Made by a program: the position numbers and the translations under genes. 64,000 nt of DNA from Pseudomonadota bacterium. GTDB lineage: Bacteria; Pseudomonadota; Gammaproteobacteria; Burkholderiales; JABEVD01. The DNA lies in contig JAJZTQ010000008.1 in the NCBI GenBank assembly GCA_021848825.1, forward strand, positions 14,999 through 78,998, read 5' to 3'. The notes below the pieces were generated by a model, which saw only the letters and a program-made list of their open reading frames with translations, was not told the origin of the DNA and did not search any database. This document shows positions 2,045 to 56,296 of this stretch, piece by piece. Each line of letters opens with the position of its first letter. Positions within the stretch are counted from its first letter, which is position 1.

Positions 2045-2061
2045 TTTCTTAATTCCTTTCA

Positions 2062-2077: not shown

Positions 2078-2145
2078 ACCAAATTCTTTATGAACATATA
2101 GGCTGATTGATATCATTTCTCCAGTTTCAGCGATACGGAGAAGAA

Positions 2146-2886: not shown

Positions 2887-2898
2887 GAGAGGAAAGAC

Positions 2899-5573: not shown

Positions 5574-5574
5574 C

Positions 5575-8892: not shown

Positions 8893-8929
8893 AAATGAAG
8901 GATTAGGCAGTAGAATTGCCAATTTTGCC

Positions 8930-20982: not shown

Positions 20983-22163
20983 CGGAACGCTTCGTTTCGG
21001 GAAATGCTGTCAGGCTTCTGAAGAACGGCGAGGAATACTTTCCCGCGCTGGAATCAGCGATAGACGAAGCGATGCACGAAATCTTTCTCGAAACCTATAT
21101 TTTCGAGCATGACAGGGCGGGCATCCGGATAGGAAAGGCCTTGTCGAATGCCGCGGCAAGAGGGGTTTCCGTTCAGCTCATGGTGGACGGATTCGGCTCG
21201 AGGACCCTTCCGGAAGCCTTCGTCGAGGAAATGGAAAATTCGGGGGTCAAGGTGCTTTTCTTCGGCCAGAGGACTTCCCCCTGGACGCTCAGGAGAAGCA
21301 GGCTGCGAAGACTGCACAGGAAGCTCGCCGTGATCGATGCCAGAACGGCCTTCGTCGGCGGAATAAACATCATCGACGACAGGAACATTCCGGGGGTTCC
21401 GATAAAGGGTGAAGACATTCCGCCGAGGTTCGATTACGCCATCCAGGTCGAGGGACCGCTTGTTTCGGAAATCCATCATTCCGTCAGGAGCCTCTGGATC
21501 CTCAGGGCATGGATGCATTTCCAGCGGCCATGGCAGGAAAGCTTCACGCCGAAAATGCAGGAAAGGCACGGCACCCAGCACGCCGCATTCCTGGTCAGGG
21601 ACAACCTGAGGCACAGGCGCAACATCGAACTCGCCTATCTGCATGCCATCGGCTCCGCGAAAAAGGAGATCATCATCGCCAATGCCTACTTCTTTCCCGG
21701 ATTGGGCTTCAGGCATGCGCTCGTCGACGCGGCTTCGCGCGGCGTGCGGGTGATCCTGCTTCTGCAGGGAAAGGTCGAATATCTTCTGCTTCATTACGCG
21801 ACGAGAGCGCTTTATGGCAATTTCCTGGATTCGGGAATAGAGATTTACGAATACCAGAGGAGCCTGATGCATGCCAAGGTCGCCGTCGTCGACAACCACT
21901 GGACCACTGTCGGCTCATCCAACATCGACCCGTTCAGCCTGCTTCTCGCCAGGGAAGCGAATGTCGTGATCAGGGACGATACCTTCGCATCGGAATTGAG
22001 AAAGAGCCTTCTCGAATCGATAGAAAAGGATTCGACAAGGCTTTATCCGGATTCATGGGAAAGGCAACCCCTCCCGAGAAGGGTCCTGATCTGGCTTTCA
22101 TACGGGCTGGTCCGGTTCCTGACAGGCATGGCGGGATACGGGAGGGACCATGAATTCAGGTGA
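20979..22163 (+). CDS. clsB: Cardiolipin synthase B-type phospholipase D family protein
   Basis: Two HKD motifs (LHRKLAVID, MHAKVAVVD) and no N-terminal TM helices. Confidence 0.85.
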   Translation: MTERFVSGNAVRLLKNGEEYFPALESAIDEAMHEIFLETYIFEHDRAGIRIGKALSNAAARGVSVQLMVDGFGSRTLPEAFVEEMENSGVKVLFFGQRTSPWTLRRSRLRRLHRKLAVIDARTAFVGGINIIDDRNIPGVPIKGEDIPPRFDYAIQVEGPLVSEIHHSVRSLWILRAWMHFQRPWQESFTPKMQERHGTQHAAFLVRDNLRHRRNIELAYLHAIGSAKKEIIIANAYFFPGLGFRHALVDAASRGVRVILLLQGKVEYLLLHYATRALYGNFLDSGIEIYEYQRSLMHAKVAVVDNHWTTVGSSNIDPFSLLLAREANVVIRDDTFASELRKSLLESIEKDSTRLYPDSWERQPLPRRVLIWLSYGLVRFLTGMAGYGRDHEFR

Positions 22164-23913
22164 CTGGAAAACGGTCAAAACCCTTTTCCCCTACCTCATG
22201 GAATTCAGGGGAAGAGTATCGGTCGCGGCGCTGTTCCTGATCCTCGCCAAGGCTGCAGGAGTCACTGTCCCCATCGTCTTCAAGCATGTGGTCGATTCGC
22301 TCGACGCGAAAAAAGGCGCGATCGTTCTTCCCATCGCCCTGCTCCTGCTCTACGGGCTCTTGAGGTTCTTCAATACCCTGTTCGGCGAACTCAGGGATGC
22401 CGTATTCGCAAAGGTGACGCAGCGCGCGATCCGGCGAGTGGCGCTCAAGGTCTTCCTCCATCTCCATACCCTCAGCCTCAGATTCCATCTGGAGCGGCAG
22501 ACCGGCGGCATGTCCCGGGACATCGAGCGGGGAACCAAGGGCATCAGCTTCCTGCTCAATTTCATGCTTTTCAACATCATTCCGACCATCGTCGAGATCG
22601 CCCTCGTCGCGGTCATTCTGCTTTCCAGATACGACGCCTGGTTCGCGATCATCATCTGCATCACGCTTGCGGTCTACATCGCCTTCACGCTCGCCATCAC
22701 GGAATGGCGGATGATATTCAGAAGGATGATGAACGAGATGGATTCGAAGGCCAACACCCGGGCCATAGACAGCCTACTGAATTACGAGACGGTGAAATAT
22801 TTCTCCAACGAGGACTACGAGGCGAAGCGCTACGATGCCAGCCTCGTGACCTGGGAAAATGCGGCGGTCAGGAACCAGACTTCCCTTGCCTGGCTCAATG
22901 CCGGGCAGAGCGCGATCATTGCAGTCGGCATCACGGTCCTGATGTGGCTCGCGTCGAAAGGCGTGGCCGAGAAGAAAATGACGATAGGCGACCTGGTACT
23001 GGTGAATGCCTACATGCTCCAGCTCTACATGCCGCTCAACTTTCTCGGCTTCGTCTACCGGGAAATCAAGCATTCCCTCGCCGACATGGAAAAAATGTTC
23101 GGCCTGCTGGAAAGATTTCCGGAAGTGAAGGATGAAAAGGAGGCAACGGAACTCGTCCCTGGAAACGCCGCTGTCAGGTTCGAGCATGTGGACTTCAGCT
23201 ACGAGCAGGACAGGCAGATCCTGTTTGATGTCGATTTCGAGATTCCGGCAGGAAAAACGGTGGCGGTGGTGGGCCACAGCGGCTCGGGGAAATCGACCCT
23301 TTCCAGACTGCTTTTCAGGTTCTACGAACCCGAAAGAGGAAGGGTGATGATAAACGGGCAGGATATTCGGCAAGTCACCCAGAAGAGCCTGAGACAGGCG
23401 ATAGGCATCGTTCCCCAGGACACTGTCCTGTTCAACGATACCATCTATTACAATATCGCCTACGGCAGGCTGGACGCCGCCCGAGAGGAAGTCATCGAGG
23501 CTGCGAAGATGGCGCATATCCACGATTTCGTCGAATCCCTTCCGCAAGCGTACGATACCCTCGTGGGCGAACGGGGATTGAAGCTCTCGGGCGGGGAAAA
23601 GCAGCGCGTCGCGATAGCGCGCGCGATACTCAAGAACCCTTCCGTGCTGATCTTCGACGAGGCCACTTCAGCGCTCGATTCGAAGTCGGAGAAGGCGATC
23701 CAGAACGAGCTCAAAAGGATAGCAAAGGACAGGACAACGCTCGTCATCGCCCACAGGCTTTCGACCATCGTCGATTCCGACAGGATACTCGTGATGGAAA
23801 ACGGCAGGATCATCGAGCAGGGAACGCACAGGATGCTGCTCGAACGCGGCGGGACCTATGCCCACATGTGGCGCCTGCAGCAGGAAGAGGAAAAGATCAC
23901 GGTATTGGAGTAG
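22150..23913 (+). CDS. ABC exporter, fused permease/ATPase, Atm1/AtmA-like
   Basis: Six-TM domain followed by Walker [10 protein letters not shown], signature LSGGEKQR and Walker B LIFDEATS. 14-nt overlap with clsB. Confidence 0.8.
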
Positions 23914-39686: not shown

Positions 39687-39702
39687 TGGCATGAACATTG
39701 CT
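39687..39702 (+). promoter_or_regulatory. Candidate sigma54 (-24/-12) promoter TGGCATGAACATTGCT upstream of nasT
   Basis: GG and GC are spaced as in TGGCAC-N5-TTGCW; 32 nt upstream of the nasT ATG. Confidence 0.55.
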
Positions 39703-39733: not shown

Positions 39734-40309
39734 ATGTTGCGAGTAATGCTGATCGACGAGGACGAGGAAAGACGCGCCCTCCTGAACGGCGCGCTGCTCG
39801 AGAACGGCTATGAAATCGTGTCTGAAGATTCAGGCACGCAAAATCTTCACGACCTCGTGAAGAAAGCTTGTCCGGACGTGATCATCGTCGGAACGGACTC
39901 GCCCAGCCGGGACAGCCTGGAAGACATCTGCTTGCTGAGCCGCGATGCGCCTCGCCCCATCGTGATGTTCACGCATGACGGGGATCGGGAAAAGATCCGG
40001 GAAGCGATCAGGTCCGGCGTATCGGCCTATGTCGTCGACGGATTGAAAGGCGATCGCATCAGATCCCTTGTCGACGTGGCAATCGCCCGCTTCGAAGCGC
40101 ACCAGGCGCTGATGAACGAGCTCGATGCGATGCAGGGCAAGCTGGCTGACCGCAAGGTCGTCGAGCGCGCCAAGGGCATTCTGATGCAGAAGAAGAATTG
40201 CAGCGAGGAAGAGGCTTACCGGATCCTGCGCAAAGCGGCCATGGACAAGAACATGAAGCTTGTCGAAGTGGCGGCGCAATTGATCGACATGGCCAATCTT
40301 TTTACTTAG
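39734..40309 (+). CDS. nasT: ANTAR-domain response-regulator-like antiterminator NasT
   Basis: REC-like N-terminus (MLIDEDE...) and a C-terminal ANTAR domain (KVVERAKGILMQKKNCSEEEAYRILRKAAMDKNMKL). Confidence 0.85.
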   Translation: MLRVMLIDEDEERRALLNGALLENGYEIVSEDSGTQNLHDLVKKACPDVIIVGTDSPSRDSLEDICLLSRDAPRPIVMFTHDGDREKIREAIRSGVSAYVVDGLKGDRIRSLVDVAIARFEAHQALMNELDAMQGKLADRKVVERAKGILMQKKNCSEEEAYRILRKAAMDKNMKLVEVAAQLIDMANLFT

Positions 40310-40310
40310 G

Positions 40311-40368
40311 GCGATTCTCCAAAGGGGGGGAAACGCTCCGGGACCGAAGTCCCAACGGCAAAGGCGCC
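40311..40368 (+). promoter_or_regulatory. ANTAR-target-like leader 1: hexaloop hairpins GCGATTCTCC[AAAGGG]GGGGAAACGC and GGC[AAAGGC]GCC
   Basis: Both loops have A at position 1 and G at position 4. The second hairpin overlaps the terminator 5' arm. Confidence 0.6.
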
Positions 40369-40403
40369 ATCTGGATGATTTCATCCGGATGGCGCTTTTT
40401 TTT
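40364..40403 (+). terminator. Intrinsic terminator (14-bp stem with one G-U, then T8) between nasT and the porin gene
   Basis: GCGCCATCTGGATG/CATCCGGATGGCGC followed by TTTTTTTT. Confidence 0.8.
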
Positions 40404-40427: not shown

Positions 40428-41669
40428 ATGAAAAAAATTTGGCCAGGACTCTTTCTTCTCGCATCTTGCCAGGCGAGCGCCGATTCGCTGTCAGACATGA
40501 TAGCAGCCGGCAAGGCGGATCTGCAGCTTCGCCCTCGCTACGAATTCGTGCAGCAGGACGGCAAGCCGAACAATGCCAATGCCTATACCCTGCGCACGCT
40601 GCTGGGCTACAGCCTGAAACCTGAAGCGGGGTTCGGCGGAACGATCCAGTTCATCAACGTCAGCGCCCTGGGGGCCGAGCATTTCAACAGCACCCTGAAC
40701 GGCCACACTGCCTATCCTGTCGTGGCCGACCCTGGTGTGAGCGCCGTCAATCAGGCATTCCTGAGCTACGGGGGAATGCCCCGGACGAACCTGAAGCTCG
40801 GCAGGCAGATCATCATCCTCGACAATTCGAGATGGATAGGCAATGTCGATTTCCGCCAGAACATGCAGACGTTCGATGCCTTCAGTATCGAAAACAGCAG
40901 CCTGAAGAACACGAAGTTTTTCGTTTCGCGAATCGCCCGGGTCAAGGGAAGCTACGCCAATTTCCAGAGCCCCGTCGGATACAACCTGCAGCATGTGAAG
41001 GCAGACATCCTCCATGCGTCCTTTACGCCCTTCAAACAGACGACCTTGACGGCCTATGAATATTTCTACCAGGACGAAAGCTTCCCTCAGGGCTCGCCTT
41101 CGAATATTTCAAGCGCAACGCCCGGCCTGCGCGTCGATGGCTCGATAGGCGAGGGGCTCAGGATTCTCTATACCGCAGAATACGCGAAGCAGCGAGGCTA
41201 CGCAGGGGGCCACTCCGGGATGGATGCCAGATACGAGCTGATCGGGGGAGGGGCCGCCTATGGAAAACTCTACGCGCGTCTGGACTACGAAACGCTGGGT
41301 TCCAATTCGACCGGCACATACGGATTGCAGACCCCGCTCGCCACGAAGCATATCTTCAACGGCTGGGCGGACATGTTTCTCATGACGCCTGGAAAGGGCT
41401 TGAAGGACCTGTTCGCGACCCTGGGCGGAAAAGCGGGGCCATTGGACATGGTCGCCATGGTTCACGACTACAGGGCCGACTTCGATTCGACGCACTATGG
41501 ATCGGAATGGGATCTTTCGGCTTCCCATGCCTTCACCAGCCACCTTTCGGGAAGCCTCATCTATGCCGACTACAGGGCAAAGGACGGCGCGGGAGCCTTT
41601 TTTCCAGGCACCGCGGCGCCGAATGTGAACACCAAGAAAATGTGGCTTACCCTTTTGTACCGCTACTGA
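40428..41669 (+). CDS. Outer-membrane beta-barrel porin (alginate-export/AlgE-like family by eye)
   Basis: Signal peptide, alternating amphipathic beta pattern and C-terminal ...LLYRY. Confidence 0.65.
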   Translation: MKKIWPGLFLLASCQASADSLSDMIAAGKADLQLRPRYEFVQQDGKPNNANAYTLRTLLGYSLKPEAGFGGTIQFINVSALGAEHFNSTLNGHTAYPVVADPGVSAVNQAFLSYGGMPRTNLKLGRQIIILDNSRWIGNVDFRQNMQTFDAFSIENSSLKNTKFFVSRIARVKGSYANFQSPVGYNLQHVKADILHASFTPFKQTTLTAYEYFYQDESFPQGSPSNISSATPGLRVDGSIGEGLRILYTAEYAKQRGYAGGHSGMDARYELIGGGAAYGKLYARLDYETLGSNSTGTYGLQTPLATKHIFNGWADMFLMTPGKGLKDLFATLGGKAGPLDMVAMVHDYRADFDSTHYGSEWDLSASHAFTSHLSGSLIYADYRAKDGAGAFFPGTAAPNVNTKKMWLTLLYRY

Positions 41670-41715
41670 CGGGAACGATTATTGCTTCGGGCAGGGATGT
41701 CGATAAATTCAGGAG

Positions 41716-42975
41716 GTGGAGATGAGCGGAGAAGCCGATTCCGGGCGGCGTGATTTCTTCAGGCAGGGGGCAGCATTGCTTGGCGGGGCCGCGCTCTTTG
41801 GAATCATGCCCGCTGGAGCGCGCAGTTCAGCCTATGCTGCAGGTTCCGATGCGCCTGAAATGCAGGAAGTGAAAATAGGCTTCCTGCCTTTGACGGACTG
41901 CGCATCCGTGGTCATCGCCTCCGAAATGGGCTTCGACAGGAAATACGGCATCAGGATCATCCCGAAAAGGGAAGCTTCCTGGGCTACCGTGAGAGACAAA
42001 CTCGCAAGCGGCGAACTGCAGGCATCTCAAGCGCTTTACAGCATGGTTTACGGCATCCATCTCGGCGTGGGCGGGGAGAAGACGGACATGGCCGTGCTGA
42101 TGACCCTCAACAACAACGGCCAGGACATCGTGCTGTCAAGCAGGCTCAAGGAAAAAGGCGTGAGAAGCGGAGAAGCGCTCAAGCGCCTGGTGTCCATGGA
42201 GAAGCCCCATTCCGTCTTCGCCCAGACCTTCCCTACCGGAACGCATGCGATGTGGCTTTATTACTGGATGGCCGCGCATGGCATCGATCCGCTCAGGGAC
42301 GTCAACACCATCACCGTTCCCCCGCCCCTAATGGTTTCGGCCATGCAATCGGGAAACATGGACGGATTCTGCGCCGGCGAGCCATGGGGACCGATCGCCA
42401 TCCGGGAAGGGATCGGTTTCGCCGCCGCTTCTTCCCAGCAGATCTGGAAGGATCATCCGGAAAAGGTGCTGAGCGCGACACGGGATTTCGTGGACAGCCA
42501 CCCGAACACGGCCCGTGCGATGATCATGGCCATACTCGAGGCCTCCAGCTTCATCGATCACCCGGCAAACAGGCCGACGGTGGCCAATATCATCGCCGGA
42601 AAAAACTATGTCGACGCCCCGGTCGGGATCCTGGAAGGCCGCATGCAGGGCATCTACGATAACGGCCTGGGAAAGACATGGCAGGATCCGCATCACATGA
42701 AGTTTCACGGGGACGGGGAGGTCAATTTCCCTTACCTCTCCGACGGCATCTGGTTCATGACCCAGCTGCGGCGCTGGGGTCTCCTCAGGGAAGATCCGGA
42801 TTATGATGCAGTGGCCCGAACGATCAACAGGACTGAACTCTACACGGAAGCCGCGGCAGGGGCGAAGGTTTCCGTCCCCGCCGAACCCATGCGCTCCTCG
42901 ACGCTGATGGACGGCAGAACCTGGAACGGCAAGGACCCGAAAGCCTATGCCGACAGTTTCGAAATAAGGGCCTGA
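41716..42975 (+). CDS. NrtA/CmpA/NasS-family nitrate-binding protein with twin-arginine signal peptide
   Basis: AGGAGG SD. SGRRDFFRQGAALLGGAALFG Tat motif with an AYA cleavage site, then KIGFLPLTDCASVVIA, typical of the NrtA fold. Confidence 0.8.
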   Translation: MEMSGEADSGRRDFFRQGAALLGGAALFGIMPAGARSSAYAAGSDAPEMQEVKIGFLPLTDCASVVIASEMGFDRKYGIRIIPKREASWATVRDKLASGELQASQALYSMVYGIHLGVGGEKTDMAVLMTLNNNGQDIVLSSRLKEKGVRSGEALKRLVSMEKPHSVFAQTFPTGTHAMWLYYWMAAHGIDPLRDVNTITVPPPLMVSAMQSGNMDGFCAGEPWGPIAIREGIGFAAASSQQIWKDHPEKVLSATRDFVDSHPNTARAMIMAILEASSFIDHPANRPTVANIIAGKNYVDAPVGILEGRMQGIYDNGLGKTWQDPHHMKFHGDGEVNFPYLSDGIWFMTQLRRWGLLREDPDYDAVARTINRTELYTEAAAGAKVSVPAEPMRSSTLMDGRTWNGKDPKAYADSFEIRA

Positions 42976-42993: not shown

Positions 42994-43010
42994 GGCACCG
43001 TCATGGTGCA
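42994..43010. promoter_or_regulatory. Candidate NtrC-type enhancer site GGCACCGTCATGGTGCA
   Basis: Near-perfect match by eye to TGCACC-N5-GGTGCA; ~60 bp upstream of a sigma54-like element. Confidence 0.5.
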
Positions 43011-43063: not shown

Positions 43064-43079
43064 AGGCACGGATGTTGCT
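43064..43079 (+). promoter_or_regulatory. Candidate sigma54 promoter AGGCACGGATGTTGCT upstream of the narK leader
   Basis: GGCAC-N6-TTGC with canonical GG/GC spacing. The predicted start is ~10 nt before leader hairpin 1. Confidence 0.6.
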
Positions 43080-43100: not shown

Positions 43101-43144
43101 GGTTTCCCAAAGGCGGGGAGCCGTTTCTCAGGACAAAGGCGTCC
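43101..43144 (+). promoter_or_regulatory. ANTAR-target-like leader 2: GGTTTCCC[AAAGGC]GGGGAGCC and GGAC[AAAGGC]GTCC
   Basis: Two hexaloops with A1/G4. Hairpin 2 shares 43138-43144 with the terminator stem. Confidence 0.7.
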
Positions 43145-43181
43145 ATGGCTGATATTTCAGCCATGGACGCCTTTTTGTTTT
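43138..43181 (+). terminator. Intrinsic terminator (15-bp perfect stem, 4-nt loop, TTTTTGTTTT) 16 nt upstream of narK
   Basis: GGCGTCCATGGCTGA-TATT-TCAGCCATGGACGCC read directly. Confidence 0.85.
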
Positions 43182-43196
43182 CGAAAGGAAAAGGAA

Positions 43197-44408
43197 ATGA
43201 AAACGAGCTTCTGGAAGGCCGGGCATGCGCCCACGCTGTTTGCTGCGTTTCTCTATTTCGACGTCAGCTTCATGGTCTGGGTGATACTGGGTCCGCTCGG
43301 CGTCCAGATCGCTTCGTCATTGGGACTGAATGCGGCCCAGAAAGGCATGATGGTCGCCACCCCCGTCCTCGCCGGCGCGCTTCTCAGGATCGTGATGGGC
43401 ATGCTGGTCGACCATCTGAAGCCGAAGCTGGCCGGCATCGTCGGCCAGCTTGCCGTGATGCTTGCACTCGTCCTGGCCTGGCTCTTCGGCATCCATGATT
43501 ACAGCCAGGTGCTGATACTGGGCGCGTTCCTCGGCTTTGCCGGCGCCTCCTTCGCAGTGGCATTGCCGCTCGCTTCCCGCTGGTATCCTCCCGAGCACCA
43601 GGGCACTGCGCTGGGCATTGCCGGGGCGGGCAATTCGGGAACCGTTCTGGCTGCCCTTTTCGCACCCACCCTTGCGCTCTGGTATGGCTGGAACAACGTC
43701 CTGGGATTCGCCCTGATTCCGCTTTTCATCGCCTTCATGGTCTATGTTTTCGTGGCGAAGGACAGCCCTGAATGCCCTCCCCCCAAGACGCTTGTCGAAT
43801 ATGCCCGGGTATTGAAGGACAGGGATGCATGGTGGTTCATGTTCTTCTACAGCGTGACTTTCGGCGGCTTCGTCGGACTCGCCTCTTCACTCTCGATCTA
43901 TTTTCATGACCAGTACGGGCTTTCCGCAGTCAAGGCGGGCTTCTACACGGCCGCCTGCGTATTTGCAGGGTCTCTCGTCCGTCCCATGGGCGGCGCGCTG
44001 GCGGACAGGATAGGGGGCGTGCGCACCCTTTCCTTCATGTACGTGATTGCCTCGATCAGCCTCTTCGTCATGAGCTCCGGTCTTTCCGATGTCAACGCCA
44101 CGCTGGCCGTGTGCGTCTTGGCCATGCTTTCTCTGGGCATGGGCAACGGCGCGATTTTCCAGCTCGTTCCCCAGCGCTTCAGGAAGGAAATCGGGGTGAT
44201 GACGGGGCTCGTCGGCATGGCGGGCGGAATCGGCGGATTCTATCTCGCATCGAGCCTCGGCTACTTCAAGGCGCATACGGGCGACTACAAAATCGGCCTG
44301 ATGATCTTCGCCGGCATGGCCGTCCTGGCGCTGACCGGATTGAGCAGCGTGAAGAAGAGATGGAGAACCACATGGGGCGCACTGAATCTCAGCGCGGCGA
44401 AGATCTGA
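43197..44408 (+). CDS. narK: MFS nitrate/nitrite transporter (NarK/NasA type)
   Basis: 12-TM MFS with nitrate-signature-like Gly-rich motifs (GFAGASFAV, GIAGAGNSG, GMAGGIGG). ATG 43197 follows GGAAAAGGAA. Confidence 0.9.
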   Translation: MKTSFWKAGHAPTLFAAFLYFDVSFMVWVILGPLGVQIASSLGLNAAQKGMMVATPVLAGALLRIVMGMLVDHLKPKLAGIVGQLAVMLALVLAWLFGIHDYSQVLILGAFLGFAGASFAVALPLASRWYPPEHQGTALGIAGAGNSGTVLAALFAPTLALWYGWNNVLGFALIPLFIAFMVYVFVAKDSPECPPPKTLVEYARVLKDRDAWWFMFFYSVTFGGFVGLASSLSIYFHDQYGLSAVKAGFYTAACVFAGSLVRPMGGALADRIGGVRTLSFMYVIASISLFVMSSGLSDVNATLAVCVLAMLSLGMGNGAIFQLVPQRFRKEIGVMTGLVGMAGGIGGFYLASSLGYFKAHTGDYKIGLMIFAGMAVLALTGLSSVKKRWRTTWGALNLSAAKI

Positions 44409-46075
44409 TGGATTTCCTGAGCATCTCGCACGGCGCTTCAAGCGACAGGGGTCGGCGCGACCGCAACGAAGACTTCTTCGGCGCGGTGACCCCCGAAGAC
44501 CGCCTGCTCGACACCCGCGGCATCCTGGTGGCCATCGCTGACGGCGTGAGCGGCAATACGGGCGGGAGGGAAGCAGCTGAATACACGGTGAGAAGCGTGC
44601 TGAGCGACTATTATGCGACGCCCGAGACATGGGGAATCCCGAATTCCCTGGACAAGCTTCTCTCGGCCGCCAATCGCTGGCTGCTCGCCCAGAAGGGGAG
44701 TCTCACCGGCATGGCGAGCACGGTGAGCCTGCTCGTCCTGAAAGGGGATCGCTATACCATCGCCCATGTCGGGGATACCCGGATCTACCTCAGGCGCGGC
44801 GAAAGCCTGACACTCCTCACCACGGACCATGTCTGGGAAGGCCCGGAACTGCGCCATGTGTTGAAAAGAGCCGTGGGCCTGGATCAGCACCTGACGGTCG
44901 ATTACAGCGAAGGGCAATTGAGGGAAAAGGATGTCTTCCTGCTCGTCACGGACGGCGTGTGGGAGCGTCTCGGACAGAAGAGGATGCACGAGATCCTCAA
45001 CCTTCACGAAAATCCCGAAAGAAGCGCAAAAGTGCTCGTCGAACAGGCCCTGGCTTCGGGCGGACAGGACAACGCGACCGCCCAGGTGGTGAAGATAGAA
45101 AGCCTGGGACGGGGCATGCTTCTCGAAGGCCGGGATCTCCCGCTTCCGCCCAGGTTGAAAGTCGGGCAGAAACTGGACGGATACGAGATCCTGGAAATCA
45201 TGCACGATTCCCGGGAAACGATCCTCTACAAGGTCAGGGAAGAATCGAGCCGCAAGCATTTCGTGCTGAAAACGCTGCAGCCATCGATGCAGCAGGACGA
45301 GAAGGCCTGCAGCAGCCTGCTCACGGAGGAATGGCTGGGCAAGCGCATCCAGTCCCATTATTTCCCGCAAGTCGTCCCAGCCTCTTCCGGAAAACGCACT
45401 GCGCTCTATTACGTGATGACCTGGCATGACGGCGCGACGCTTGCCGCACATATCGAAAGCGGAAGGCATTTCCCCGTCGTCGAGGCCAGACAGATCGGCA
45501 TCAGGCTGGCCAAGGGACTGGCCGCCCTGCACCGGCTCAACATCATCCATCGCGACATCAAGCCCGACAATATCCTGCTCGGAGAAGACGGAAAACTGCG
45601 CATCCTCGATCTGGGCGTGGCCCTGAATCCCGCCCTGAACGCCGAAGAAAACGATGCCAATCCGGGGACGCCGAGCTACATGGCGCCGGAGCGCATCAAG
45701 GGGGAAGAGGCGACCTTCGGCAGCGATCTCTACAGTGTCGGCGTCACGCTCTATCATCTGCTGACAAGGAAATATCCGTACGGCGAAATCGAGCCTTTCC
45801 AGCATCCCAGATTCCCGGATCCTGTTCCGCCCACGCGCTATCGCCCGGACATCCCGGGATGGTTCGAAGCCATCATCCTCAAGGCTGTGCAGAGAAACCC
45901 GTCGCATCGGTACGAATTTCCGGAAGCGCTTCTTCTCGATCTCGAACTTGGCGAGCAGCCTGCATTCCAGAGCCCGTCAAGCCCGAAAAGAAGCCGGCCT
46001 TCCGTCTGGCAGATTGCTGCCGTCCTGTCCGTCCTTTTGAACCTTTTCCTGCTCTACCTGGCTGGAATCGGCTGA
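44408..46075 (+). CDS. Fused PP2C-type Ser/Thr phosphatase / Hanks-type Ser/Thr kinase with C-terminal membrane anchor
   Basis: PP2C motifs RDRNEDFF, ADGVSG, TDGVWE, GGQDNAT. Kinase motifs VLKTL, HRDIKPDNILL, DLG, SYMAPE. C-terminal hydrophobic helix. The ATG overlaps the narK stop. Confidence 0.85.
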   Translation: MDFLSISHGASSDRGRRDRNEDFFGAVTPEDRLLDTRGILVAIADGVSGNTGGREAAEYTVRSVLSDYYATPETWGIPNSLDKLLSAANRWLLAQKGSLTGMASTVSLLVLKGDRYTIAHVGDTRIYLRRGESLTLLTTDHVWEGPELRHVLKRAVGLDQHLTVDYSEGQLREKDVFLLVTDGVWERLGQKRMHEILNLHENPERSAKVLVEQALASGGQDNATAQVVKIESLGRGMLLEGRDLPLPPRLKVGQKLDGYEILEIMHDSRETILYKVREESSRKHFVLKTLQPSMQQDEKACSSLLTEEWLGKRIQSHYFPQVVPASSGKRTALYYVMTWHDGATLAAHIESGRHFPVVEARQIGIRLAKGLAALHRLNIIHRDIKPDNILLGEDGKLRILDLGVALNPALNAEENDANPGTPSYMAPERIKGEEATFGSDLYSVGVTLYHLLTRKYPYGEIEPFQHPRFPDPVPPTRYRPDIPGWFEAIILKAVQRNPSHRYEFPEALLLDLELGEQPAFQSPSSPKRSRPSVWQIAAVLSVLLNLFLLYLAGIG

Positions 46076-46103: not shown

Positions 46104-48536
46104 ATGCAGAAACTGAAGCTTGTGGTAGTGGGAAACGGCATGGCCGGCATGAAGGTCGTGGAAGAATTGTTGAAAATAGGGCCCGATCTCTACGAAATCA
46201 CGGTATTCGGCGCAGAGCCCTATCCCAATTACAACCGCATCATGCTCTCCCCGGTTCTCGCCGGGGAACAGAAATTCGAAGACATCATTCTCAACAGCCT
46301 GGGCTGGTACGAAGAAAACGGCATCAGGCTGCATCTGGGCAAGAAAGTCCTCAGAATAGACAGGCAAAGGCGGATTGTCGAAGCCGAAGAAGGCATGGAG
46401 GTGGAATACGACAGACTGCTGCTCGCCACCGGATCGAGCCCTTTCATCCTGCCGGTGCCGGGACGGGATCTCGATGGGGTGATCGCGTACCGCGACATCC
46501 AGGATACCGAAAAGATGATCGAGACGGCAGAGAAGCACCGGCATGCCGTGGTCATCGGCGGCGGACTGCTGGGGCTGGAAGCGGCGAACGGCCTCAGGCT
46601 CCGCGGCATGGACGTGACCGTGGTTCATCTCGCGTCATGGCTGATGGAGCGCCAGCTCGACAGGCATGCCGGCAAGATGCTTCAATGCGAACTCGAGAAG
46701 CGGGGATTGAAATTTCTGCTCGAGAAGAAAACCGAAGCGCTGCTCGGGAATGAAGGCCGGGTATGCGGGGTGCGCTTCTCCGACGGCGGGGAAATCCCGG
46801 CGGACCTGGTGGTGATGGCAGTCGGGATCAAGCCCAACACGCAGCTTGCGGAATCGGCAGGAATACATTGCAACAGGGGAATCGTGGTCGACGACACGAT
46901 GCAGACATTCGATCCGAAAATCTACGCAGTCGGGGAATGCGTCTCCCACAGAGGAACGAGCTATGGTCTGGTCGCGCCGCTCTTCGACATGGCAAAAGTC
47001 TGCGCGAACCATCTGGCGATGATGGGAATAGGAAGATATGCCGGATCGTTCACCGCGACGAAGCTCAAGGTGACGGGAATCGATCTCTTTTCTGCCGGAA
47101 AGTTCGAAGGCGACGAGCATTCCGAGGAGATCGTGCTGAACGACGTGGCGGGCGGGGTCTACAAGAAGATCACGATCCGCGACGGCAAGATCGTCGGCAC
47201 GGTGCTTTATGGCGATACCGTCGACGGACAATGGTATTTCAGGATGCTGAAGGAAGGGCAGGACATCGGCGAAATCAGGGGCAACCTGATGTTCGGCCAG
47301 AGTCATCTCGGCAACGCGGGACACGAGGGTCGCGTGCAGGCGTCCAGCATGACGGACGACATGGAAGTGTGCGGATGCAACGGCGTGTGCAAGGGCACGA
47401 TCACGAAAGCGATCAAGGAAAAGGGGCTTTTCACGCTCGAAGAGGTGAGAAAGCATACCAAGGCATCGAGCTCCTGCGGATCCTGCACCGGACTCGTCGA
47501 ACAGATTCTCGCATCCGAACTGGGAGGCGGCTATTCGCCGAAAACCAGCGCCGAAAAGCCGCTCTGTGCGTGCACCGAGCATACCCATGCCGACCTGCGC
47601 AAGGCCATCAGGGAAGAGAAGCTGCTCTCGATTCCGGAAGTGATGGCCTTCATGAACTGGAAGACGCAGAACGGCTGCTCGACCTGCCGTCCCGCGCTCA
47701 ATTATTATCTCATCTCGACCTGGCCTCACGAGGCGATGGACGACCCCCAGTCGCGCTTCGTCAACGAAAGGGTTCATGCCAACATCCAGAAGGACGGGAC
47801 TTTTTCGGTTGTGCCGAGGATGTACGGCGGGATCACCAATCCCGAACAGCTGCGCAGGATCGCGGATGTCGCCGACAAATACCGGGTGCCGATGGTCAAG
47901 GTGACGGGCGGGCAGCGAATCGACCTGCTCGGCGTCAGGCGGGAGGATCTGCCTGCAATATGGTCGGATCTCGACATGCCGTCGGGCTATGCCTACGGCA
48001 AGTCGATACGCACCGTGAAGACCTGCGTCGGCACCGAATTCTGCCGCTTCGGCACGCAGGATTCGACAGGCCTCGGCATCATGCTCGAGCAGGCATTCGA
48101 CAGGATGTGGGCGCCGCACAAGGTGAAGATGGCCGTATCGGGATGTCCGAGGAACTGCGCCGAATCCACCATCAAGGATGTCGGCATCATCGGGGTCGAA
48201 TCGGGCTGGGAAATCTATGTCGCGGGCAACGGCGGCATCAAGGCGGAGGTTTCGCAATTTCTCGCGAAGGTGAAGACGAAGGAGGAAGCCATGGAATATT
48301 CGGGCGCCTTCCTCCAGCTCTACCGGGAGGAAGCCTATTATCTGGAAAGGACAGTCCACTGGATCGGGCGGGTCGGACTCGACTACGCGAGATCGAGGGT
48401 GGCTGAAGATGAGGAAAACCGGCGCGCATTGTACCAGCGCCTGCTCTATGCGCTCTCCGGCGAGCGCGATCCCTGGAAGTCCGTTGTCGAAAGGGAAAGA
48501 AAGCCTCTTTTCGAATCGCTCATGGTGGAGGCATGA
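46104..48536 (+). CDS. nirB: Assimilatory nitrite reductase [NAD(P)H] large subunit
   Basis: VVVGNGMAG FAD motif, BFD-like CGCNGVC...CGSC, and the siroheme/[4Fe-4S] cysteines (CVGTEFC...SGCPRNC). AAGGAG SD before ATG 46104. Confidence 0.95.
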   Translation: MQKLKLVVVGNGMAGMKVVEELLKIGPDLYEITVFGAEPYPNYNRIMLSPVLAGEQKFEDIILNSLGWYEENGIRLHLGKKVLRIDRQRRIVEAEEGMEVEYDRLLLATGSSPFILPVPGRDLDGVIAYRDIQDTEKMIETAEKHRHAVVIGGGLLGLEAANGLRLRGMDVTVVHLASWLMERQLDRHAGKMLQCELEKRGLKFLLEKKTEALLGNEGRVCGVRFSDGGEIPADLVVMAVGIKPNTQLAESAGIHCNRGIVVDDTMQTFDPKIYAVGECVSHRGTSYGLVAPLFDMAKVCANHLAMMGIGRYAGSFTATKLKVTGIDLFSAGKFEGDEHSEEIVLNDVAGGVYKKITIRDGKIVGTVLYGDTVDGQWYFRMLKEGQDIGEIRGNLMFGQSHLGNAGHEGRVQASSMTDDMEVCGCNGVCKGTITKAIKEKGLFTLEEVRKHTKASSSCGSCTGLVEQILASELGGGYSPKTSAEKPLCACTEHTHADLRKAIREEKLLSIPEVMAFMNWKTQNGCSTCRPALNYYLISTWPHEAMDDPQSRFVNERVHANIQKDGTFSVVPRMYGGITNPEQLRRIADVADKYRVPMVKVTGGQRIDLLGVRREDLPAIWSDLDMPSGYAYGKSIRTVKTCVGTEFCRFGTQDSTGLGIMLEQAFDRMWAPHKVKMAVSGCPRNCAESTIKDVGIIGVESGWEIYVAGNGGIKAEVSQFLAKVKTKEEAMEYSGAFLQLYREEAYYLERTVHWIGRVGLDYARSRVAEDEENRRALYQRLLYALSGERDPWKSVVERERKPLFESLMVEA

Positions 48537-48841
48537 TGGAAAACTGGATCAAGGTATGCGAACTGGAAGACATCCCTCAGCTAGGCGCCAGGGTGGTCAA
48601 GGGAAAGTCGTGCGAAATCGCGCTCTTCAGGGAGGGCGACAGGATCTATGCGCTGCACGACAAGTGCCCTCACAAGGGCGGCCCGCTCTCGCAGGGAATC
48701 GTCAGCAAGGGTCGGGTCACCTGCCCCCTTCACGGCATGAACATCGGCCTGGAAGACGGACGGGCGATTTCTCCTGACGAAGGCTGCACCGAGACTTTTT
48801 CAGTCAGGATCGAAGAGGGCGCAGTCTATATTTCACTCTGA
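48533..48841 (+). CDS. nirD: Nitrite reductase small subunit (Rieske-like fold)
   Basis: 102 aa with CPHKGGPLSQG...CPLHG. ATGA overlap with nirB. Confidence 0.9.
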   Translation: MMENWIKVCELEDIPQLGARVVKGKSCEIALFREGDRIYALHDKCPHKGGPLSQGIVSKGRVTCPLHGMNIGLEDGRAISPDEGCTETFSVRIEEGAVYISL

Positions 48842-48851
48842 TCGGGAAGAA

Positions 48852-51515
48852 ATGGGAACAAGGACAGTTCGCTCGACCTGCTGCTATTGCGGCGTCGGCT
48901 GCGGCGTGATCATAGGCGCGCGGGAAGGCGTCATCGAATCGGTCAGGGGCGACCCCGACCATCCCGCCAATCACGGCAAGCTTTGCACCAAGGGCGCCAC
49001 GCTCCATCTGACCGCAGGCGGCCATGGCCGCCTGCTTCACCCTTCCCTTTCAGGGAAGAGAATCGGATGGAACGAAGCGCTCGACCATGCCGCAAGGCGC
49101 TTCGCCGAAACAATCGTGAAGCACGGGCCGGAAAGCGTGGCATTCTACATTTCCGGCCAGCTCCTCACCGAGGATTATTACGTCTTCAACAAGCTGGTCA
49201 AGGGCCTGATCGGCACCAACAACATCGACACCAATTCGAGGCTCTGCATGTCGTCAAGCGTGGCGGGGTACAAGGCGACCCTCGGCGCGGATGCGCCGCC
49301 AGCCTGTTACGAGGACATCGATCAGGCGCAATGCATCCTGATCGCCGGATCCAACACCGCGCTCGCCCACCCCGTTCTTTTCAGGCGCATCGAGGCAGCG
49401 AGGGAGAGAAACCCCGATCTGAAGGTCATCGTCATCGACCCCAGGAAAACCGACACCGCAAGAGCGGCAGACCTTCATCTGCCCATCCTTCCGGGGACGG
49501 ACGTCGCCCTCTTCAACGGCATGCTGCATGTGCTGCTCTGGGAAAACCTCATAGACAGGGATTACATCGATGCCCATACGGAAAATTTCGATCGCCTCAA
49601 ATCGATCGTGCACGAATATACGCCGCGTCATGTCGCCCGCCTTTGCGGCATCACTGAAGAAGATCTCGTCAGGGCATCGCTCTGGTTCGGCAATTCGCCA
49701 TCATCCCTCTCCCTCTATTGCCAGGGTCTCAACCAGTCCGTCCATGGCACGGACAAGAACGGCGCGCTGATCAATCTCCATCTCGCAACCGGAAAGATGG
49801 GAAAGCCTGGATCGGGACCCTTTTCCCTGACAGGTCAGCCCAATGCCATGGGCGGCAGGGAAGTGGGCGGGATGGCGAATCTCCTTTCGGGTCACAGGGA
49901 TCTCTCGGACCCTAAGCACAGGCAGGAGGTGGCCGATCTATGGGGAATCGATTCCGTTCCTGAAAAACCGGGAAAGACCGCAGTGGAGATGTTCGAAGCG
50001 CTGCAGGCAGGGGAAATCAGGGCGATCTGGATCGCCTGCACCAATCCCGCCCAGTCCATGCCCGATCTGGCGAAGATCCATGATGCGCTGGAAAAGGCGG
50101 ATTTCGTCGTCGTCCAGGATGCATTTCGCGACACCGAGACGGCGCGCCATGCCGATCTCCTTCTTCCCGCCTCGACCTGGGCCGAAAAGGAAGGCACCGT
50201 GACCAATTCGGAAAGAAGGATCACGCGGGTGAGGGCTGCGGTCCGTCCCCCTGGCGAGGCAAGGGCGGATTGGGAAATCGCGGCCGATTTTGCATTGAGG
50301 CTGGGGAAGCTGCTGGGGAAAAATGCCGGTCGCCTTTTCCCGTACAGGCATCCCGAGGAGATATTTCTCGAGCACAGGGAATCGACAAGGGGAAGGGATC
50401 TCGACATCACCGGGCTCGGTTACGCCATGCTCGAAGAGCAGGGTCCCCAGCAATGGCCTTGTCCGGAAGGCATGAAATCCGGGAAAAAGCGCCTTTACGA
50501 CGAAGGCATATTCCCGACTGCGACAGGACGGGCGAGATTCCACGCGGCCGAATACCAGGGTACCTCGGAAGAAACGGATGCCCGCTATCCTTTCCATCTC
50601 ACCACGGGCAGGCTGCGCGACCAGTGGCACGGCATGACGAGGACGGGCAGGACGGGGCGCCTCTTCAGCCACGATCCGGAAGCCAGTCTTTCCATGAATC
50701 CCGAAGACATGAAATCGAGACAGCTGATTTCGGGCGACATCGTCAGGGTGAAAAGCAGAAGGGGCGAGATGATCGTCTCTCTCAGGCCTGACCCCGACAT
50801 CAGGCAGGGGCAGGTCTATCTGCCGATGCACTGGGGCGGCCGTTATACAGGCGGATTCGGGGTGAACGGGCTCACCGTCGGGGATTTCGATCCCGTTTCC
50901 AAGCAGCCTGAACTCAAGCATGCAGCCGTGATGGTGGAGAAGGTCGAACTCGCCTGGACAGTCTCGGTGCTGAGAAGCGGCGACGCCCTGGAATTCATGG
51001 AAAGGGCTCAGCCCATTCTGAAGCATTTCGATTACGCGAGCGCCACGCTTTTCGGCAGGGAAGAGACGATATTCTCCTTGAAGGCCGGCTGCCTTGCCGC
51101 GCCGGATGCCGATCTCGTTCGCGAGATCGACCGGGTCTTCGATCTGGATGCGGAAGACTGCATGGTTTACCGCGACATCGGATCAGGGATCGACAAGCTG
51201 GTGAAGATCGAAGGGGGGCTCGCGGCAGGGGTCCGCTTCGTCGGCGAATCCGCGGCGCGTCAATGGCTGATGGAAGCGATGGCATCGCGTGCGGATGTTT
51301 CTCTCGTCCGCAGATGGCTGCTTGCGCCGATGTCCGCTCCTCCCACAGTCGAGATGCGGGGCAGGATCGTCTGCAACTGCCTGGACGTCTCAGAGAGCGA
51401 GATAGTCGGATCAGGCCTCGATCTCGCCGGGCTTCAGGCAAAATACAAATGCGGCACCCAATGCGGATCCTGCCTGCCCGAGATCAGGAAACTCCTGGAA
51501 TTGAACGGGCATTGA
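48852..51515 (+). CDS. nasC: Assimilatory nitrate reductase catalytic subunit (molybdopterin) with C-terminal BFD-like [2Fe-2S] domain
   Basis: N-terminal CCYCGVGC...C [4Fe-4S] motif, MopB domains and C-terminal CNC...CGTQCGSC. Confidence 0.9.
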   Translation: MGTRTVRSTCCYCGVGCGVIIGAREGVIESVRGDPDHPANHGKLCTKGATLHLTAGGHGRLLHPSLSGKRIGWNEALDHAARRFAETIVKHGPESVAFYISGQLLTEDYYVFNKLVKGLIGTNNIDTNSRLCMSSSVAGYKATLGADAPPACYEDIDQAQCILIAGSNTALAHPVLFRRIEAARERNPDLKVIVIDPRKTDTARAADLHLPILPGTDVALFNGMLHVLLWENLIDRDYIDAHTENFDRLKSIVHEYTPRHVARLCGITEEDLVRASLWFGNSPSSLSLYCQGLNQSVHGTDKNGALINLHLATGKMGKPGSGPFSLTGQPNAMGGREVGGMANLLSGHRDLSDPKHRQEVADLWGIDSVPEKPGKTAVEMFEALQAGEIRAIWIACTNPAQSMPDLAKIHDALEKADFVVVQDAFRDTETARHADLLLPASTWAEKEGTVTNSERRITRVRAAVRPPGEARADWEIAADFALRLGKLLGKNAGRLFPYRHPEEIFLEHRESTRGRDLDITGLGYAMLEEQGPQQWPCPEGMKSGKKRLYDEGIFPTATGRARFHAAEYQGTSEETDARYPFHLTTGRLRDQWHGMTRTGRTGRLFSHDPEASLSMNPEDMKSRQLISGDIVRVKSRRGEMIVSLRPDPDIRQGQVYLPMHWGGRYTGGFGVNGLTVGDFDPVSKQPELKHAAVMVEKVELAWTVSVLRSGDALEFMERAQPILKHFDYASATLFGREETIFSLKAGCLAAPDADLVREIDRVFDLDAEDCMVYRDIGSGIDKLVKIEGGLAAGVRFVGESAARQWLMEAMASRADVSLVRRWLLAPMSAPPTVEMRGRIVCNCLDVSESEIVGSGLDLAGLQAKYKCGTQCGSCLPEIRKLLELNGH

Positions 51516-54757: not shown

Positions 54758-55037
54758 ATCAAGATATCCTGAAGGGCATGTCCTGCAGGAAGGGAATAAC
54801 TCTTTTGCCGGATTTCAGGGAACTGGAATGATTGACATGGGCCATGCACATCTGCCGAGCGCCGACGAGAAAGCGGCCATTGGGGTCAAGAAGCATTTCT
54901 GCCCGGCCAGAACTGCTCACGCATTTCGAAAATGCCTTTCCCTGCCGCTCTGACGGACGATTCCGATCGGTTGCACTGGATCAGGGGAAATGACATCCGG
55001 CTGATCTATATTGGTATTGTCCACAGGAGGAATTTCC

Positions 55038-55157
55038 ATGAAGCGCATCTTCCTTTCCCCGCTCGCCAATCTTGCCATGTGCAGGAATGCTTCGCTCGTT
55101 GCCGCCTCGACAGTTCCCCCCGAAAGCATGACCGAGGAAGAGATCGATGCCGCATGA
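55038..55157 (+). CDS. Candidate 39-aa small protein MKRIFLSPLANLAMCRNASLVAASTVPPESMTEEEIDAA
   Basis: AGGAGG lies 7 nt upstream of the ATG, and the stop overlaps the next gene's ATG (ATGA). Below the ORF-track size cutoff; no homology recognised. Confidence 0.3.
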   Translation: MKRIFLSPLANLAMCRNASLVAASTVPPESMTEEEIDAA

Positions 55158-56296
55158 ATACTGCTCTTTTGAAATGCCTGATGATTTTTCTGGCGATGGT
55201 GGTCTGTGCCCGGCAGATCCAGGCTGCGGAATCCGCGAAGACTGTCGACGTGTATTTCTTCTGGATGCAAGGATGCCCTCACTGCGAAAGGGAAATGAAA
55301 GTCCTGCAGAAAGTCGAGAAGGAGCTGCCGCAGGCGAAGGTGAAATACCTGGAAATCACCGGGAACAGGAGAAACAACGCGCTTTTCTCCGAAATGTCGA
55401 GCAGGCTCGGCATCCGGGAACCGGCTGTGCCTTTGACGGTCGTTGGACGCCGGTACTGGATAGGCTATTCACCTGAGGACGGCAAGGCGATCAGGGAAAG
55501 CATAGAAGCATGCTCGGCTGGAAAATGCGAAGGGGGCATCGAAACCGCGCGCAGCATCGAGGTTCCCCTTCTCGGAGAAATCGAGCCGGCCAGCTATTCC
55601 CTCCCCGTTCTGACGGTCATTCTCGGCGCAGCCGACGGATTCAATCCCTGTGCGATGTGGGCGCTCATCTTTCTGATCGGACTCTTGCTGGGCATGAAGG
55701 ACAGCTTCAGGATGTGGGTGCTTGGAAGCGCCTTCATCGCCGGATCGGCGGCGGTCTATTTCCTGTTCATGTCGGCCTGGCTCAGCCTGTTCCTTTTCAT
55801 CGGCAGGATCGAAGCAGTCAGGATAGCGATCGCCTTCGTTGCCCTGGCGGGAGGCATCCATTATCTGCGGGAATACCGCATGAACAGAGAGGCATCCTGC
55901 GCCGTGATTGCACCCGAGAGGCGGCAGAAGGTGTTTTCAAGAATGAAAGCGCTGGCTCTGGATCGCAATTTCCTTGTCGCCCTGTTCGGCATCCTGCTCC
56001 TGGCATTCCTGGTCAACTTGATCGAGCTCATGTGTTCGGCTGGAATCCCGGCTGTCTATGCCCAGGTGCTTGCCATGCACAGGCTTCAGGCATGGCAGCA
56101 TTACGTCTACATGGGGCTCTACATCCTGGTTTTCATGGCCGACGATCTGGCTGTTTTCGTGGCCGCCATGCTGACGCTGCGCGTGAGCGGGATGACGGGG
56201 AAATACGCTCGATTTTCGCATCTTCTCGGCGCAGCGGTGTTGCTGATCATCGCCGTCCTGATGCTGTTTCGTCCGCAATGGCTGATGCTGGGGTGA
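55154..56296 (+). CDS. Fusion of periplasmic thioredoxin/DsbA-like domain (CPHC) with CcdA/DsbD-like membrane domain
   Basis: Signal peptide, WMQGCPHCE, a second pair CSAGKC, then TM helices with DGFNPCAMW and ELMCSAGIP. Confidence 0.75.
   Translation: MNTALLKCLMIFLAMVVCARQIQAAESAKTVDVYFFWMQGCPHCEREMKVLQKVEKELPQAKVKYLEITGNRRNNALFSEMSSRLGIREPAVPLTVVGRRYWIGYSPEDGKAIRESIEACSAGKCEGGIETARSIEVPLLGEIEPASYSLPVLTVILGAADGFNPCAMWALIFLIGLLLGMKDSFRMWVLGSAFIAGSAAVYFLFMSAWLSLFLFIGRIEAVRIAIAFVALAGGIHYLREYRMNREASCAVIAPERRQKVFSRMKALALDRNFLVALFGILLLAFLVNLIELMCSAGIPAVYAQVLAMHRLQAWQHYVYMGLYILVFMADDLAVFVAAMLTLRVSGMTGKYARFSHLLGAAVLLIIAVLMLFRPQWLMLG

Follow-up and report, generated by a model that had tools for sequence, protein, structure and literature searches.

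In a 64,000-nucleotide stretch of a Pseudomonadota genome (assembly GCA_021848825.1, contig JAJZTQ010000008.1; hereafter the window), the nitrate-assimilation (nas) cluster encodes an NrtA-type binding protein that carries a predicted twin-arginine translocation (Tat) signal and adjoins an outer-membrane porin, with no genes for an ATP-binding cassette (ABC) partner. Sequence comparisons firmly support the identification of this protein as an exported nitrate/nitrite binder, its descent from the betaproteobacterial transport NrtA clade and not from the NasS clade, and its retention by selection together with a release from the constraint tied to the ABC partner. We tentatively favour, with confidence somewhat short of even, the view that it serves in a periplasmic module for nitrate capture or retention that would feed NarK and no longer depend on an ABC partner. 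This reading is ranked first because the Tat signal is under selection and because the protein has stayed next to the porin in two independent orphan lineages.

Identity and export signal of the binding protein

The Pfam family NMT1_2 covers profile positions 1-252 of 252 in the binding protein (E 1.6e-94). Its closest solved structure is Synechocystis NrtA (2g29, E 3.8e-80, residues 37-416), followed by CmpA and then by the regulatory domains of NrtC/CmpC. The nitrate ligands of NrtA are W102, Q155, H196, G240, and K269 in Synechocystis numbering (PMC13204499). Alignment to 2g29, with a chain-to-residue offset of +29, placed the corresponding residues at W87, Q134, H175, G219, and K248, and all five are present in the window protein and in its orthologues from two further species (loci L010 and L012).

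The NH2-terminus of the protein, MSGEADSGRRDFFRQGAALLGGAALFGIMPAGARSSAYA|AG, combines a twin-arginine motif, a weakly hydrophobic h-region rich in Gly and Ala, a basic residue in the c-region, and an AxA site. Over the 17-codon Tat core GRRDFFRQGAALLGGAA, the three species differ by 3-8 synonymous versus 0-1 nonsynonymous codon changes, and the signal therefore appears to be maintained by selection. The gene is preceded by a strong Shine-Dalgarno sequence. These observations bear out a preliminary description of this DNA, which had proposed an NrtA-like solute-binding protein with a strong Shine-Dalgarno sequence and a canonical twin-arginine signal ending in AYA|AG, and had pointed to the nitrate-binding residues as worth inspecting. 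We infer from the sequence that the protein is in fact exported and binds nitrate.

Production of a cytoplasmic isoform from an internal start codon was considered and rejected: the Met of the segment PEMQEVKIG, which immediately precedes the mature domain, is missing in L012 (PELKEVKIG), and no Shine-Dalgarno-like sequence lies upstream of it. In many homologues from dozens of species (L017-L061; Hydrogenophilales, Thiobacillus-type), KR replaces RR in the twin-arginine motif (xKRDF[LM]KK).

Absence of ABC partner genes and ancestry of the locus

The nas cluster occupies 39.7-51.5 kb of the window on the + strand, in the order nasT, porin, binding protein, narK, PP2C/kinase fusion, nirBD, and nasA. 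Searches with tblastn found no nrtB/C/D gene in the 64 kb (queries NrtB and NrtD) and no second NrtA/NasS gene (queries NrtB, NrtD, two NasS proteins, NasF, and an NrtA of a second subfamily). The sole ABC ATPase in the window is an exporter-type fused protein (22150-23913), and narK is the only gene for an inner-membrane nitrate carrier at the locus. The statements of the preliminary description that the locus lacks nrtB/C/D and a cytoplasmic NasS, and that the major facilitator superfamily (MFS) protein NarK is its only inner-membrane transporter, thus agree with these searches; the binding protein and porin genes that it had paired are both in place, but in the order porin, then binding protein.

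A scan of genomes, with one genome per species, returned 80 loci, in approximately 70 of which nrtB-nrtD lie directly 3' of the binding-protein gene, with nasT upstream in most. In a scan of metagenomes, nrtB was downstream in 60 of 64 assessable loci. A signal of the type [RK]RDF ... AWA|AGSDAPEK was found in every genome-locus homologue with a readable NH2-terminus. Given that the scanned loci mostly read nasT-nrtA-nrtB-nrtD and carry such signals throughout, an NrtA with an export signal adjoining a lone nasT is the usual betaproteobacterial state. The pairing of a solitary nasT with an exported NrtA-like protein, which had been taken earlier for a peculiarity of this locus, is therefore present but is the norm; the rare trait of the window locus is the missing nrtBD.

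In a neighbour-joining tree (379 columns, 200 bootstraps), the window clade was monophyletic in 200 of 200 bootstraps, and in 195 of 200 it grouped with ABC-linked NrtA proteins to the exclusion of all signal-less relatives, as expected of descent from a transport NrtA. The orphan layout nasT-porin-binding protein-narK-kinase-nirB recurs in two further species, with binding proteins that are 85% identical (L009-L011, whose upstream flanks differ) and 73% identical (L012, SKS4.bin81) to that of the window. The layout is thus stable across three species. Assemblies available for these are GCA_027331305.1 for the species of the window, GCA_021811205.1 for the species at 85%, and SKS4.bin81, with contig JAJZVB010000007.1, for the one at 73%. 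A broad protein search missed the L012 binding protein (L012:10001-11254), even though the porin from the same contig was in the collection, so that absence from that search is not evidence of absence.

An independent orphan with the order nasT-binding protein-porin-nirB was found in Methylophilaceae (L016), and the nearest relative of this locus (L003) has nasT-binding protein-nrtB-nrtD-porin. In L077 and L063, the binding-protein gene is followed by converging coaBC, with no nrtBD; in L077 it closes a narK-kinase-nirC-kinase-binding protein cluster. Two close relatives of the window locus (L092 and L179; NirB 87% identical) carry nasT-porin followed by a full nrtABD of a different subfamily. 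We considered these two loci as a direct ABC-linked ancestor and rejected them, given that their NrtA belongs to the other subfamily (39% identity); no immediate precursor was found. The NrtA of L092 (L092:9415-10905) is 39% identical to the window protein in its mature part and approximately 70% identical in its signal peptide (window 41722-41838). This contrast suggests that recombination took place where signal and mature part meet or, alternatively, that signal and Tat machinery have co-evolved within each lineage.

Selection on the binding protein

Within the orphan clade, the ratio of nonsynonymous to synonymous substitution rates (dN/dS) for the binding protein was 0.17-0.20 at dS 0.5-0.9, a sign of clear purifying selection and also the highest value in the cluster, compared with 0.07-0.12 for NasT, NarK, and NirB, and its dN exceeded that of NasT approximately threefold. 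Four ABC-linked pairs with a comparable degree of divergence gave a dN for the binding protein at most equal to that of NasT, with dN/dS of 0.015-0.125. The open reading frame is free of frameshifts and stop codons in the three species.

Constraint was assessed at 189 alignment columns, namely those where conservation among 77 ABC-linked orthologues reaches 95% or more. For the ABC-linked proteins, the median number of deviating columns is 1 and the highest is 6; the counts are 30 for the window protein, 24 for L010, 23 for L012, 16 for L016, 6 for L063, and 3 for L077. The same test applied to NirB, NarK, and the kinase of the window gave 4-6% deviating columns, versus 16% for the binding protein, and the excess is gene-specific because these control genes do not share it. 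The window clade and L016 have 8 deviating columns in common versus 2 expected (p 1.4e-4), 5 of them with an identical replacement residue; part of this overlap reflects softer columns, since outliers among the ABC-linked proteins show a slight overlap too. The deviating columns include none of the five ligand positions.

These data bear on two accounts in which the protein would have no new role. One holds that it is a decaying, non-functional remnant of the ABC system that was lost, which the operon has simply carried with it. It is indeed the fastest-evolving gene product of the cluster, and a sister species has lost the signal peptide (see below). A decaying gene would not be expected to show the dN/dS found at such synonymous divergence, intact reading frames in three species, conservation of the five ligands and of the Tat core, or a strong Shine-Dalgarno sequence, and we regard this account as improbable.

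The other account is that the protein remains an ordinary ABC subunit, with nrtB and nrtD, or a paralogue of the cyanate/bicarbonate type, encoded elsewhere and still receiving nitrate from it. Use of other ABC machinery by orphan binding proteins has been proposed (PMC8786288). L092 and L179 show that close relatives can carry a full nrtABD of a different subfamily after nasT-porin, and the orphans L063 and L077, with only 3-6 deviating columns, may be of this kind. For the window protein we consider such a partnership unlikely, although less so than decay. A gene-specific, 3- to 4-fold excess of changes at positions invariant in the 77 ABC-linked orthologues and a raised dN/dS would be unexpected in a subunit still docking to NrtB. 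Furthermore, the orphan layout persists stably in three species, and a fourth species has deleted the signal.

Signal-less relatives and a possible role in sensing

The fourth species of the clade (L178; porin 78% identical) has the order nasT-porin-binding protein. Its binding-protein gene (L178:6356-6490, ENA ERZ27237461 k141_146000) aligns to window positions 41722-41960 and has undergone an in-frame deletion of 111 nt that removes exactly the RR motif, the h-region, and the AxA site. The Shine-Dalgarno sequence, the ATG, and the first four codons are retained, and the protein starts with MSEGTDAPELKEAKIGFMPLTDCAS... Short C(C/G)GAT repeats are present at the deletion junction, as would be the case for a slippage deletion. 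The contig ends 45 codons into the gene, and a search for the full-length gene with these 45 residues gave no match.

In a more distant relative (L180, porin 64% identical; Logan SRR28285709_21978, 142-1984), nasT is followed by a gene for an NrtA-like protein of 406 amino acids, and this pair is divergent from porin-narK-kinase-nirBD-nasA. The L180 protein has retained the ligands and shares 53% identity with that of the window. Of the signal, only a vestige of the c-region remains (...VPTDIRTIAWAGGSDAPEK), the RR motif and hydrophobic core being gone, and the protein resembles a NasS that arose not long ago from an exported NrtA. In Burkholderia arboris (L097), nasT is accompanied by a signal-less copy (42% identity), divergent from narK-nirB. 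In L033 (8324-9610) and L037 (13091-14269), an extra signal-less NrtA-like gene follows nrtD in addition to a Tat-type NrtA, and in L091 (12969-14209) the copy after nrtD is split by a frameshift; these three genes resemble Burkholderia NasS. A Rhodobacter plasmid (L096) shows the classical nasT-nasS-nasF-ntrB-ATPase arrangement. From the signal-less copies in L178, L180, L097, and L033/L037/L091, the signal has therefore been lost several times. Every recovered locus of the narK type keeps one NrtA-like gene next to or near nasT; exceptions in placement are L077 and L063 (the latter with no narK seen), which hold it at the end of the cluster. Because a sister species has deleted the signal peptide, the lineage is, as judged from its sequences, evolutionarily labile towards the cytoplasmic sensor NasS.

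The window protein may itself act as such a sensor. NasT of the window is a pseudo-receiver, in which the acceptor position varies among homologues (D, N, or E) and the conserved Lys is missing, and NasT of all compared loci is of this same type, as is NasT partnered with NasS. In the characterised NasS-NasT system, such a NasT needs NasS as its cognate sensor (PMC3795266). A NasS-like regulatory role would mean that the window protein is the nitrate sensor of NasT, with a folded precursor or a retained fraction sequestering NasT without nitrate and releasing it on binding; the sensor may subsequently be taken away by export. Folding of Tat substrates occurs in the cytoplasm and precedes their export. 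The protein is the product of the sole NrtA/NasS-family gene in the 64 kb, its gene would lie inside the nasT transcription unit, and its counterparts near nasT in narK-type loci are signal-less in L180, L097, and L178. Retention after loss of nrtBD, free of ABC-type constraint, is also what a non-transport role predicts. On the other hand, purifying selection acts on the Tat signal in three species, which is hard to reconcile with a purely cytoplasmic role. In the tree the protein stands apart from the signal-less relatives, no convergence of residues in the orphan clade on the signal-less or NasS proteins was seen, the separate signal-less copies that L033 and L037 carry along with a Tat-type NrtA indicate that the roles can be split between two proteins, and only 45 codons of the L178 gene are on the contig. 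A regulatory role of this kind is, in our judgement, not probable, although it is the alternative to which we give most weight.

The narrower proposition that the NrtA with its Tat signal is itself the sensor of NasT, as precursor or retained fraction, and that the locus is a living intermediate between a transport protein and NasS, seems to us more doubtful again, slightly more so than an unlinked ABC partner. If true, it may apply equally to over 100 betaproteobacterial nasT-nrtA loci with no nasS within the examined flanks of 7-10 kb.

Two candidate signs of convergence on NasS were set aside. Burkholderia NasS is equally distant (0.42-0.46) from the orphan and the ABC-linked proteins. The QMVAN helix, considered as a NasS marker, is lost in the window protein, L010, and two NasS proteins and is kept in L012 (N only), L016, and L180.

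Regulatory leaders and a proposed capture module

A leader between nasT and the porin gene (leader 1) contains a P1 hairpin at 40309-40338 with the hexaloop AAAGGG and a P2 hairpin at 40357-40368 (GGC-AAAGGC-GCC) that overlaps a terminator (40363-40395) followed by U8. Its fold has a free energy of -57.4 kcal/mol (z -6.7), and it is conserved with compensatory changes in L010, L012, and L092. In a second leader upstream of narK (leader 2), P2 likewise overlaps a terminator (43135-43174) followed by a T-run, and conservation with compensatory changes was seen in the sister species. Both leaders show the layout of ANTAR antitermination, namely a REC + ANTAR protein, dual hexaloops, and a P2 hairpin that competes with a terminator. 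The Rfam models narK RNA (RF03032) and Pseudomonas P11 (RF00625) matched leader 2 at 32.2 bits, below the gathering score of 43.2, and at 30 bits, below 70, respectively.

The pattern GGCAY-N5-TTGCW, resembling a sigma-54 promoter, occurs twice in the 64 kb, before nasT and before narK, the latter site forming the 5' end of the RF03032 match and lying inside the RF00625 match. Approximately 55 bp upstream of the narK site is a perfect palindrome conserved in L010 and L012, a probable NtrC enhancer-type site. The gap between the porin and binding-protein genes is 52 nt and has no terminator-like fold (z -0.89), which makes the co-transcription of these two genes asserted in the preliminary description plausible. 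The binding-protein gene is on the strand of nasT, one gene away, and would be reached from nasT through leader 1. Because there are two leaders and two sigma-54 sites, with no terminator between porin and binding protein, the cluster would comprise two NasT-gated units, nasT-leader 1-porin-binding protein and sigma-54-leader 2-narK-kinase-nirBD-nasA.

In the mechanism that we propose, nrtB and nrtD were lost from the nas locus in this lineage and the binding protein was retained. NasT would override the terminator of leader 1, and read-through from nasT would then express porin and binding protein as a two-gene unit; the second unit, from narK to nasA, would be driven by sigma-54 and also gated by NasT. 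Nitrate would enter through the outer-membrane channel and be held in the periplasm, probably at sub-micromolar affinity, by the Tat-exported, NrtA-derived binding protein. The nitrate so held would raise the supply to NarK with no docking to an ABC permease, and NarK, with its PP2C/kinase partner, would carry it over the inner membrane.

Several points weigh against the capture module. We know of no case of a binding protein serving an MFS carrier. An undocked binding protein alone cannot raise steady-state flux, and any benefit would therefore have to lie in retention or buffering. That the protein is exported and binds nitrate, and that the channel is selective, is predicted from sequence. 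The deletion in L178 and the signal-less copies beside nasT in narK-type loci point to cytoplasmic regulatory use after loss of the ABC system. The absence of nrtBD, finally, holds for the 64-kb window, and unlinked nrtBD may exist; should they be present in another part of the genome, the finding would amount to no more than a rearranged operon.

The porin

The product of the porin gene matched Pfam Alginate_exp at 34.4 bits (cut-off 25.2). An AlphaFold model built from 51 homologues has 18 strands (predicted local distance difference test score 88.6), and Foldseek matched it to OccK/OccD channels (OccK1 and OccD3), the Campylobacter major outer-membrane protein, and AlgE, with template modelling (TM) scores of 0.6-0.7 and 10-15% identity; the TM score for AlgE was about 0.6-0.65. 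An AlgE-like porin, as reported earlier, is thus recovered by both profile and model. Treatment of its signal as that of a lipoprotein (LLASC) was rejected, given that the Cys is not conserved in the family consensus.

Relatives of the porin occur in nasT-porin-nrtABD-nirBD clusters (L092 and L179), after nrtD in Gallionella and Methylophilaceae, at the end of cynABD-like-cynS operons in Sulfuriferula (L093 and L094), in a binding protein-permease-ATPase-porin cluster (L181), between narK-narK-narG and nnrS-narGHJI in Thermithiobacillus tepidarius (L095), and ahead of narK in L180. No alginate genes were found near the porin gene, whose context is nitrate assimilation. This distribution supports the view that the family forms channels for small nitrogen oxyanions and cyanate and does not export alginate. 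Of the dedicated anion channel suggested in the preliminary description, the association with clusters for nitrate, nitrite, and cyanate uptake or reduction is observed, while selectivity is a prediction. Porin and binding protein adjoin in both independent orphan lineages, the window clade and L016. We found no characterised member of the family in the literature, and the locus draws attention to it as an uncharacterised family of porins linked with the uptake of nitrate, nitrite, and cyanate.

Relation to known systems

The window protein shares with NrtA of importers of the NrtABCD and NasFED types (2g29; NasF of L096) the fold family (NMT1_2, substrate-binding protein cluster F-I), the five ligands, an export signal, expression with nitrate-assimilation genes, and its clade. 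It differs from them in having no nrtB/C/D in the 64 kb and in the 23-30 changes (window, L010, and L012) at ABC-invariant positions. Cyanobacterial NrtA is lipid-anchored (PMC10945777; PMC3795266), whereas the window protein is predicted to be soluble and Tat-exported. In common with NasS of the NasS-NasT system, it is an NrtA-like predicted nitrate binder whose gene shares a nas cluster with nasT; NasT is of the same pseudo-receiver ANTAR type, and the cluster uses NarK and not an ABC importer. NasS of Paracoccus denitrificans has no signal peptide and is cytoplasmic (PMC3795266). In contrast to NasS, and to the signal-less copies in L097, L096, and L180, the window protein has a conserved Tat signal; its gene is separated from nasT by the porin gene, and it does not branch with the signal-less proteins. 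AmiC-AmiR of Pseudomonas aeruginosa is the mechanistic model for NasS-NasT, with a binding-protein-like sensor sequestering an ANTAR antiterminator (PMC3795266). Unlike the window protein, AmiC belongs to another class of binding protein, has another ligand, and is cytoplasmic. The predicted fold of the porin is shared with OprD/Occ channels and AlgE, which are 18-strand monomeric barrels, at an identity of only 10-15%. An orphan urtA in marine Synechococcus likewise has no adjacent ABC subunits (PMC8786288); in the present case, by comparison, one can trace the operon of origin, the event of loss, the regime of selection, and a sister form without the signal. The components are all of known kinds. 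The combination of an orphan Tat-type NrtA with a porin in a NasT regulon of the narK type, along with a signal-deleted form in the same clade, is new, and our literature search returned no description of it and nothing relevant on a nitrate porin, an orphan NrtA, or a Tat-dependent NasF.

The standard model of how heterotrophic bacteria sense nitrate is NasS-NasT, and to our knowledge the origin of NasS from NrtA has not so far been traced. The locus raises the question of how NasT is controlled in the numerous betaproteobacteria that export their sole NrtA-like protein. The clade shows several stages together, with an ABC-linked Tat-type NrtA, an orphan Tat-type NrtA (the window and two species), a deleted signal in L178, and a vestige in L180; with these side by side, the passage from NrtA to NasS becomes testable with few constructs. 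The locus is also a test case for whether a binding protein can help a secondary carrier.

Other features of the window

The coordinates of the features discussed are collected in Table 1.

Table 1 Features of the nas cluster in the window
Feature	Position	Strand	Remarks
Sigma-54 promoter-like site	39688..39702	+	GGCAT-N5-TTGCT; upstream of nasT
nasT	39734..40309	+	REC + ANTAR; Pfam ANTAR 3.9e-23, weak Response_reg match
Leader 1	40309..40403	+	Two hexaloop hairpins and intrinsic terminator, between nasT and porin
Porin, predicted 18-strand outer-membrane channel (Alginate_exp / Occ-like)	40428..41669	+	Sec signal MKKIWPGLFLLASCQASA|D
NrtA-type nitrate/nitrite-binding protein, 417 aa	41722..42975	+	NMT1_2 1.6e-94; without ABC partner genes
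Tat-type signal peptide of the binding protein, residues 1-39	41722..41838	+	RRDFFR ... AYA|AG
Perfect palindrome	42995..43009	+	GCACC-N5-GGTGC
Sigma-54 promoter-like site	43065..43079	+	GGCAC-N5-TTGCT; upstream of narK
Leader 2	43101..43184	+	P1 43101-43122, P2 43131-43144; hexaloop AAAGGC in both
narK, MFS nitrate/nitrite transporter	43194..44408	+	MFS_1 2.3e-41; TIGR00886
PP2C phosphatase-Ser/Thr kinase fusion	44372..46075	+	Hydrophobic COOH-terminal tail
nirB, nirD, nasA, assimilatory nitrite and nitrate reductases	46104..51515	+	

NarK scored 298 bits against the TIGR00886 NarK family, slightly below the cut-off of 311.7. The start of the PP2C/kinase gene overlaps the 3' end of narK by 37 nt. 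We found no published function for such a fusion. The narK-kinase pair recurs across many related loci, and L077 has a second kinase copy after a nirC-type channel gene.

Two long open reading frames, at 7837-9378 (-, 513 amino acids) and 54932-56296 (+, 454 amino acids), had no Pfam match at E 1e-6. Outside the nas cluster, the window is ordinary chromosome, with genes for sulfate assimilation together with ileS, ispH, ubiD, nadA, dapA, panC, pcnB, purMN, katG, and a P-type ATPase gene. The sulfate-assimilation cluster (1124-7700) encodes a LysR regulator, a TauE-type exporter, a sulfite reductase haemoprotein, a 3'-phosphoadenosine 5'-phosphosulfate (PAPS) reductase, and CysD- and CysN-like proteins.

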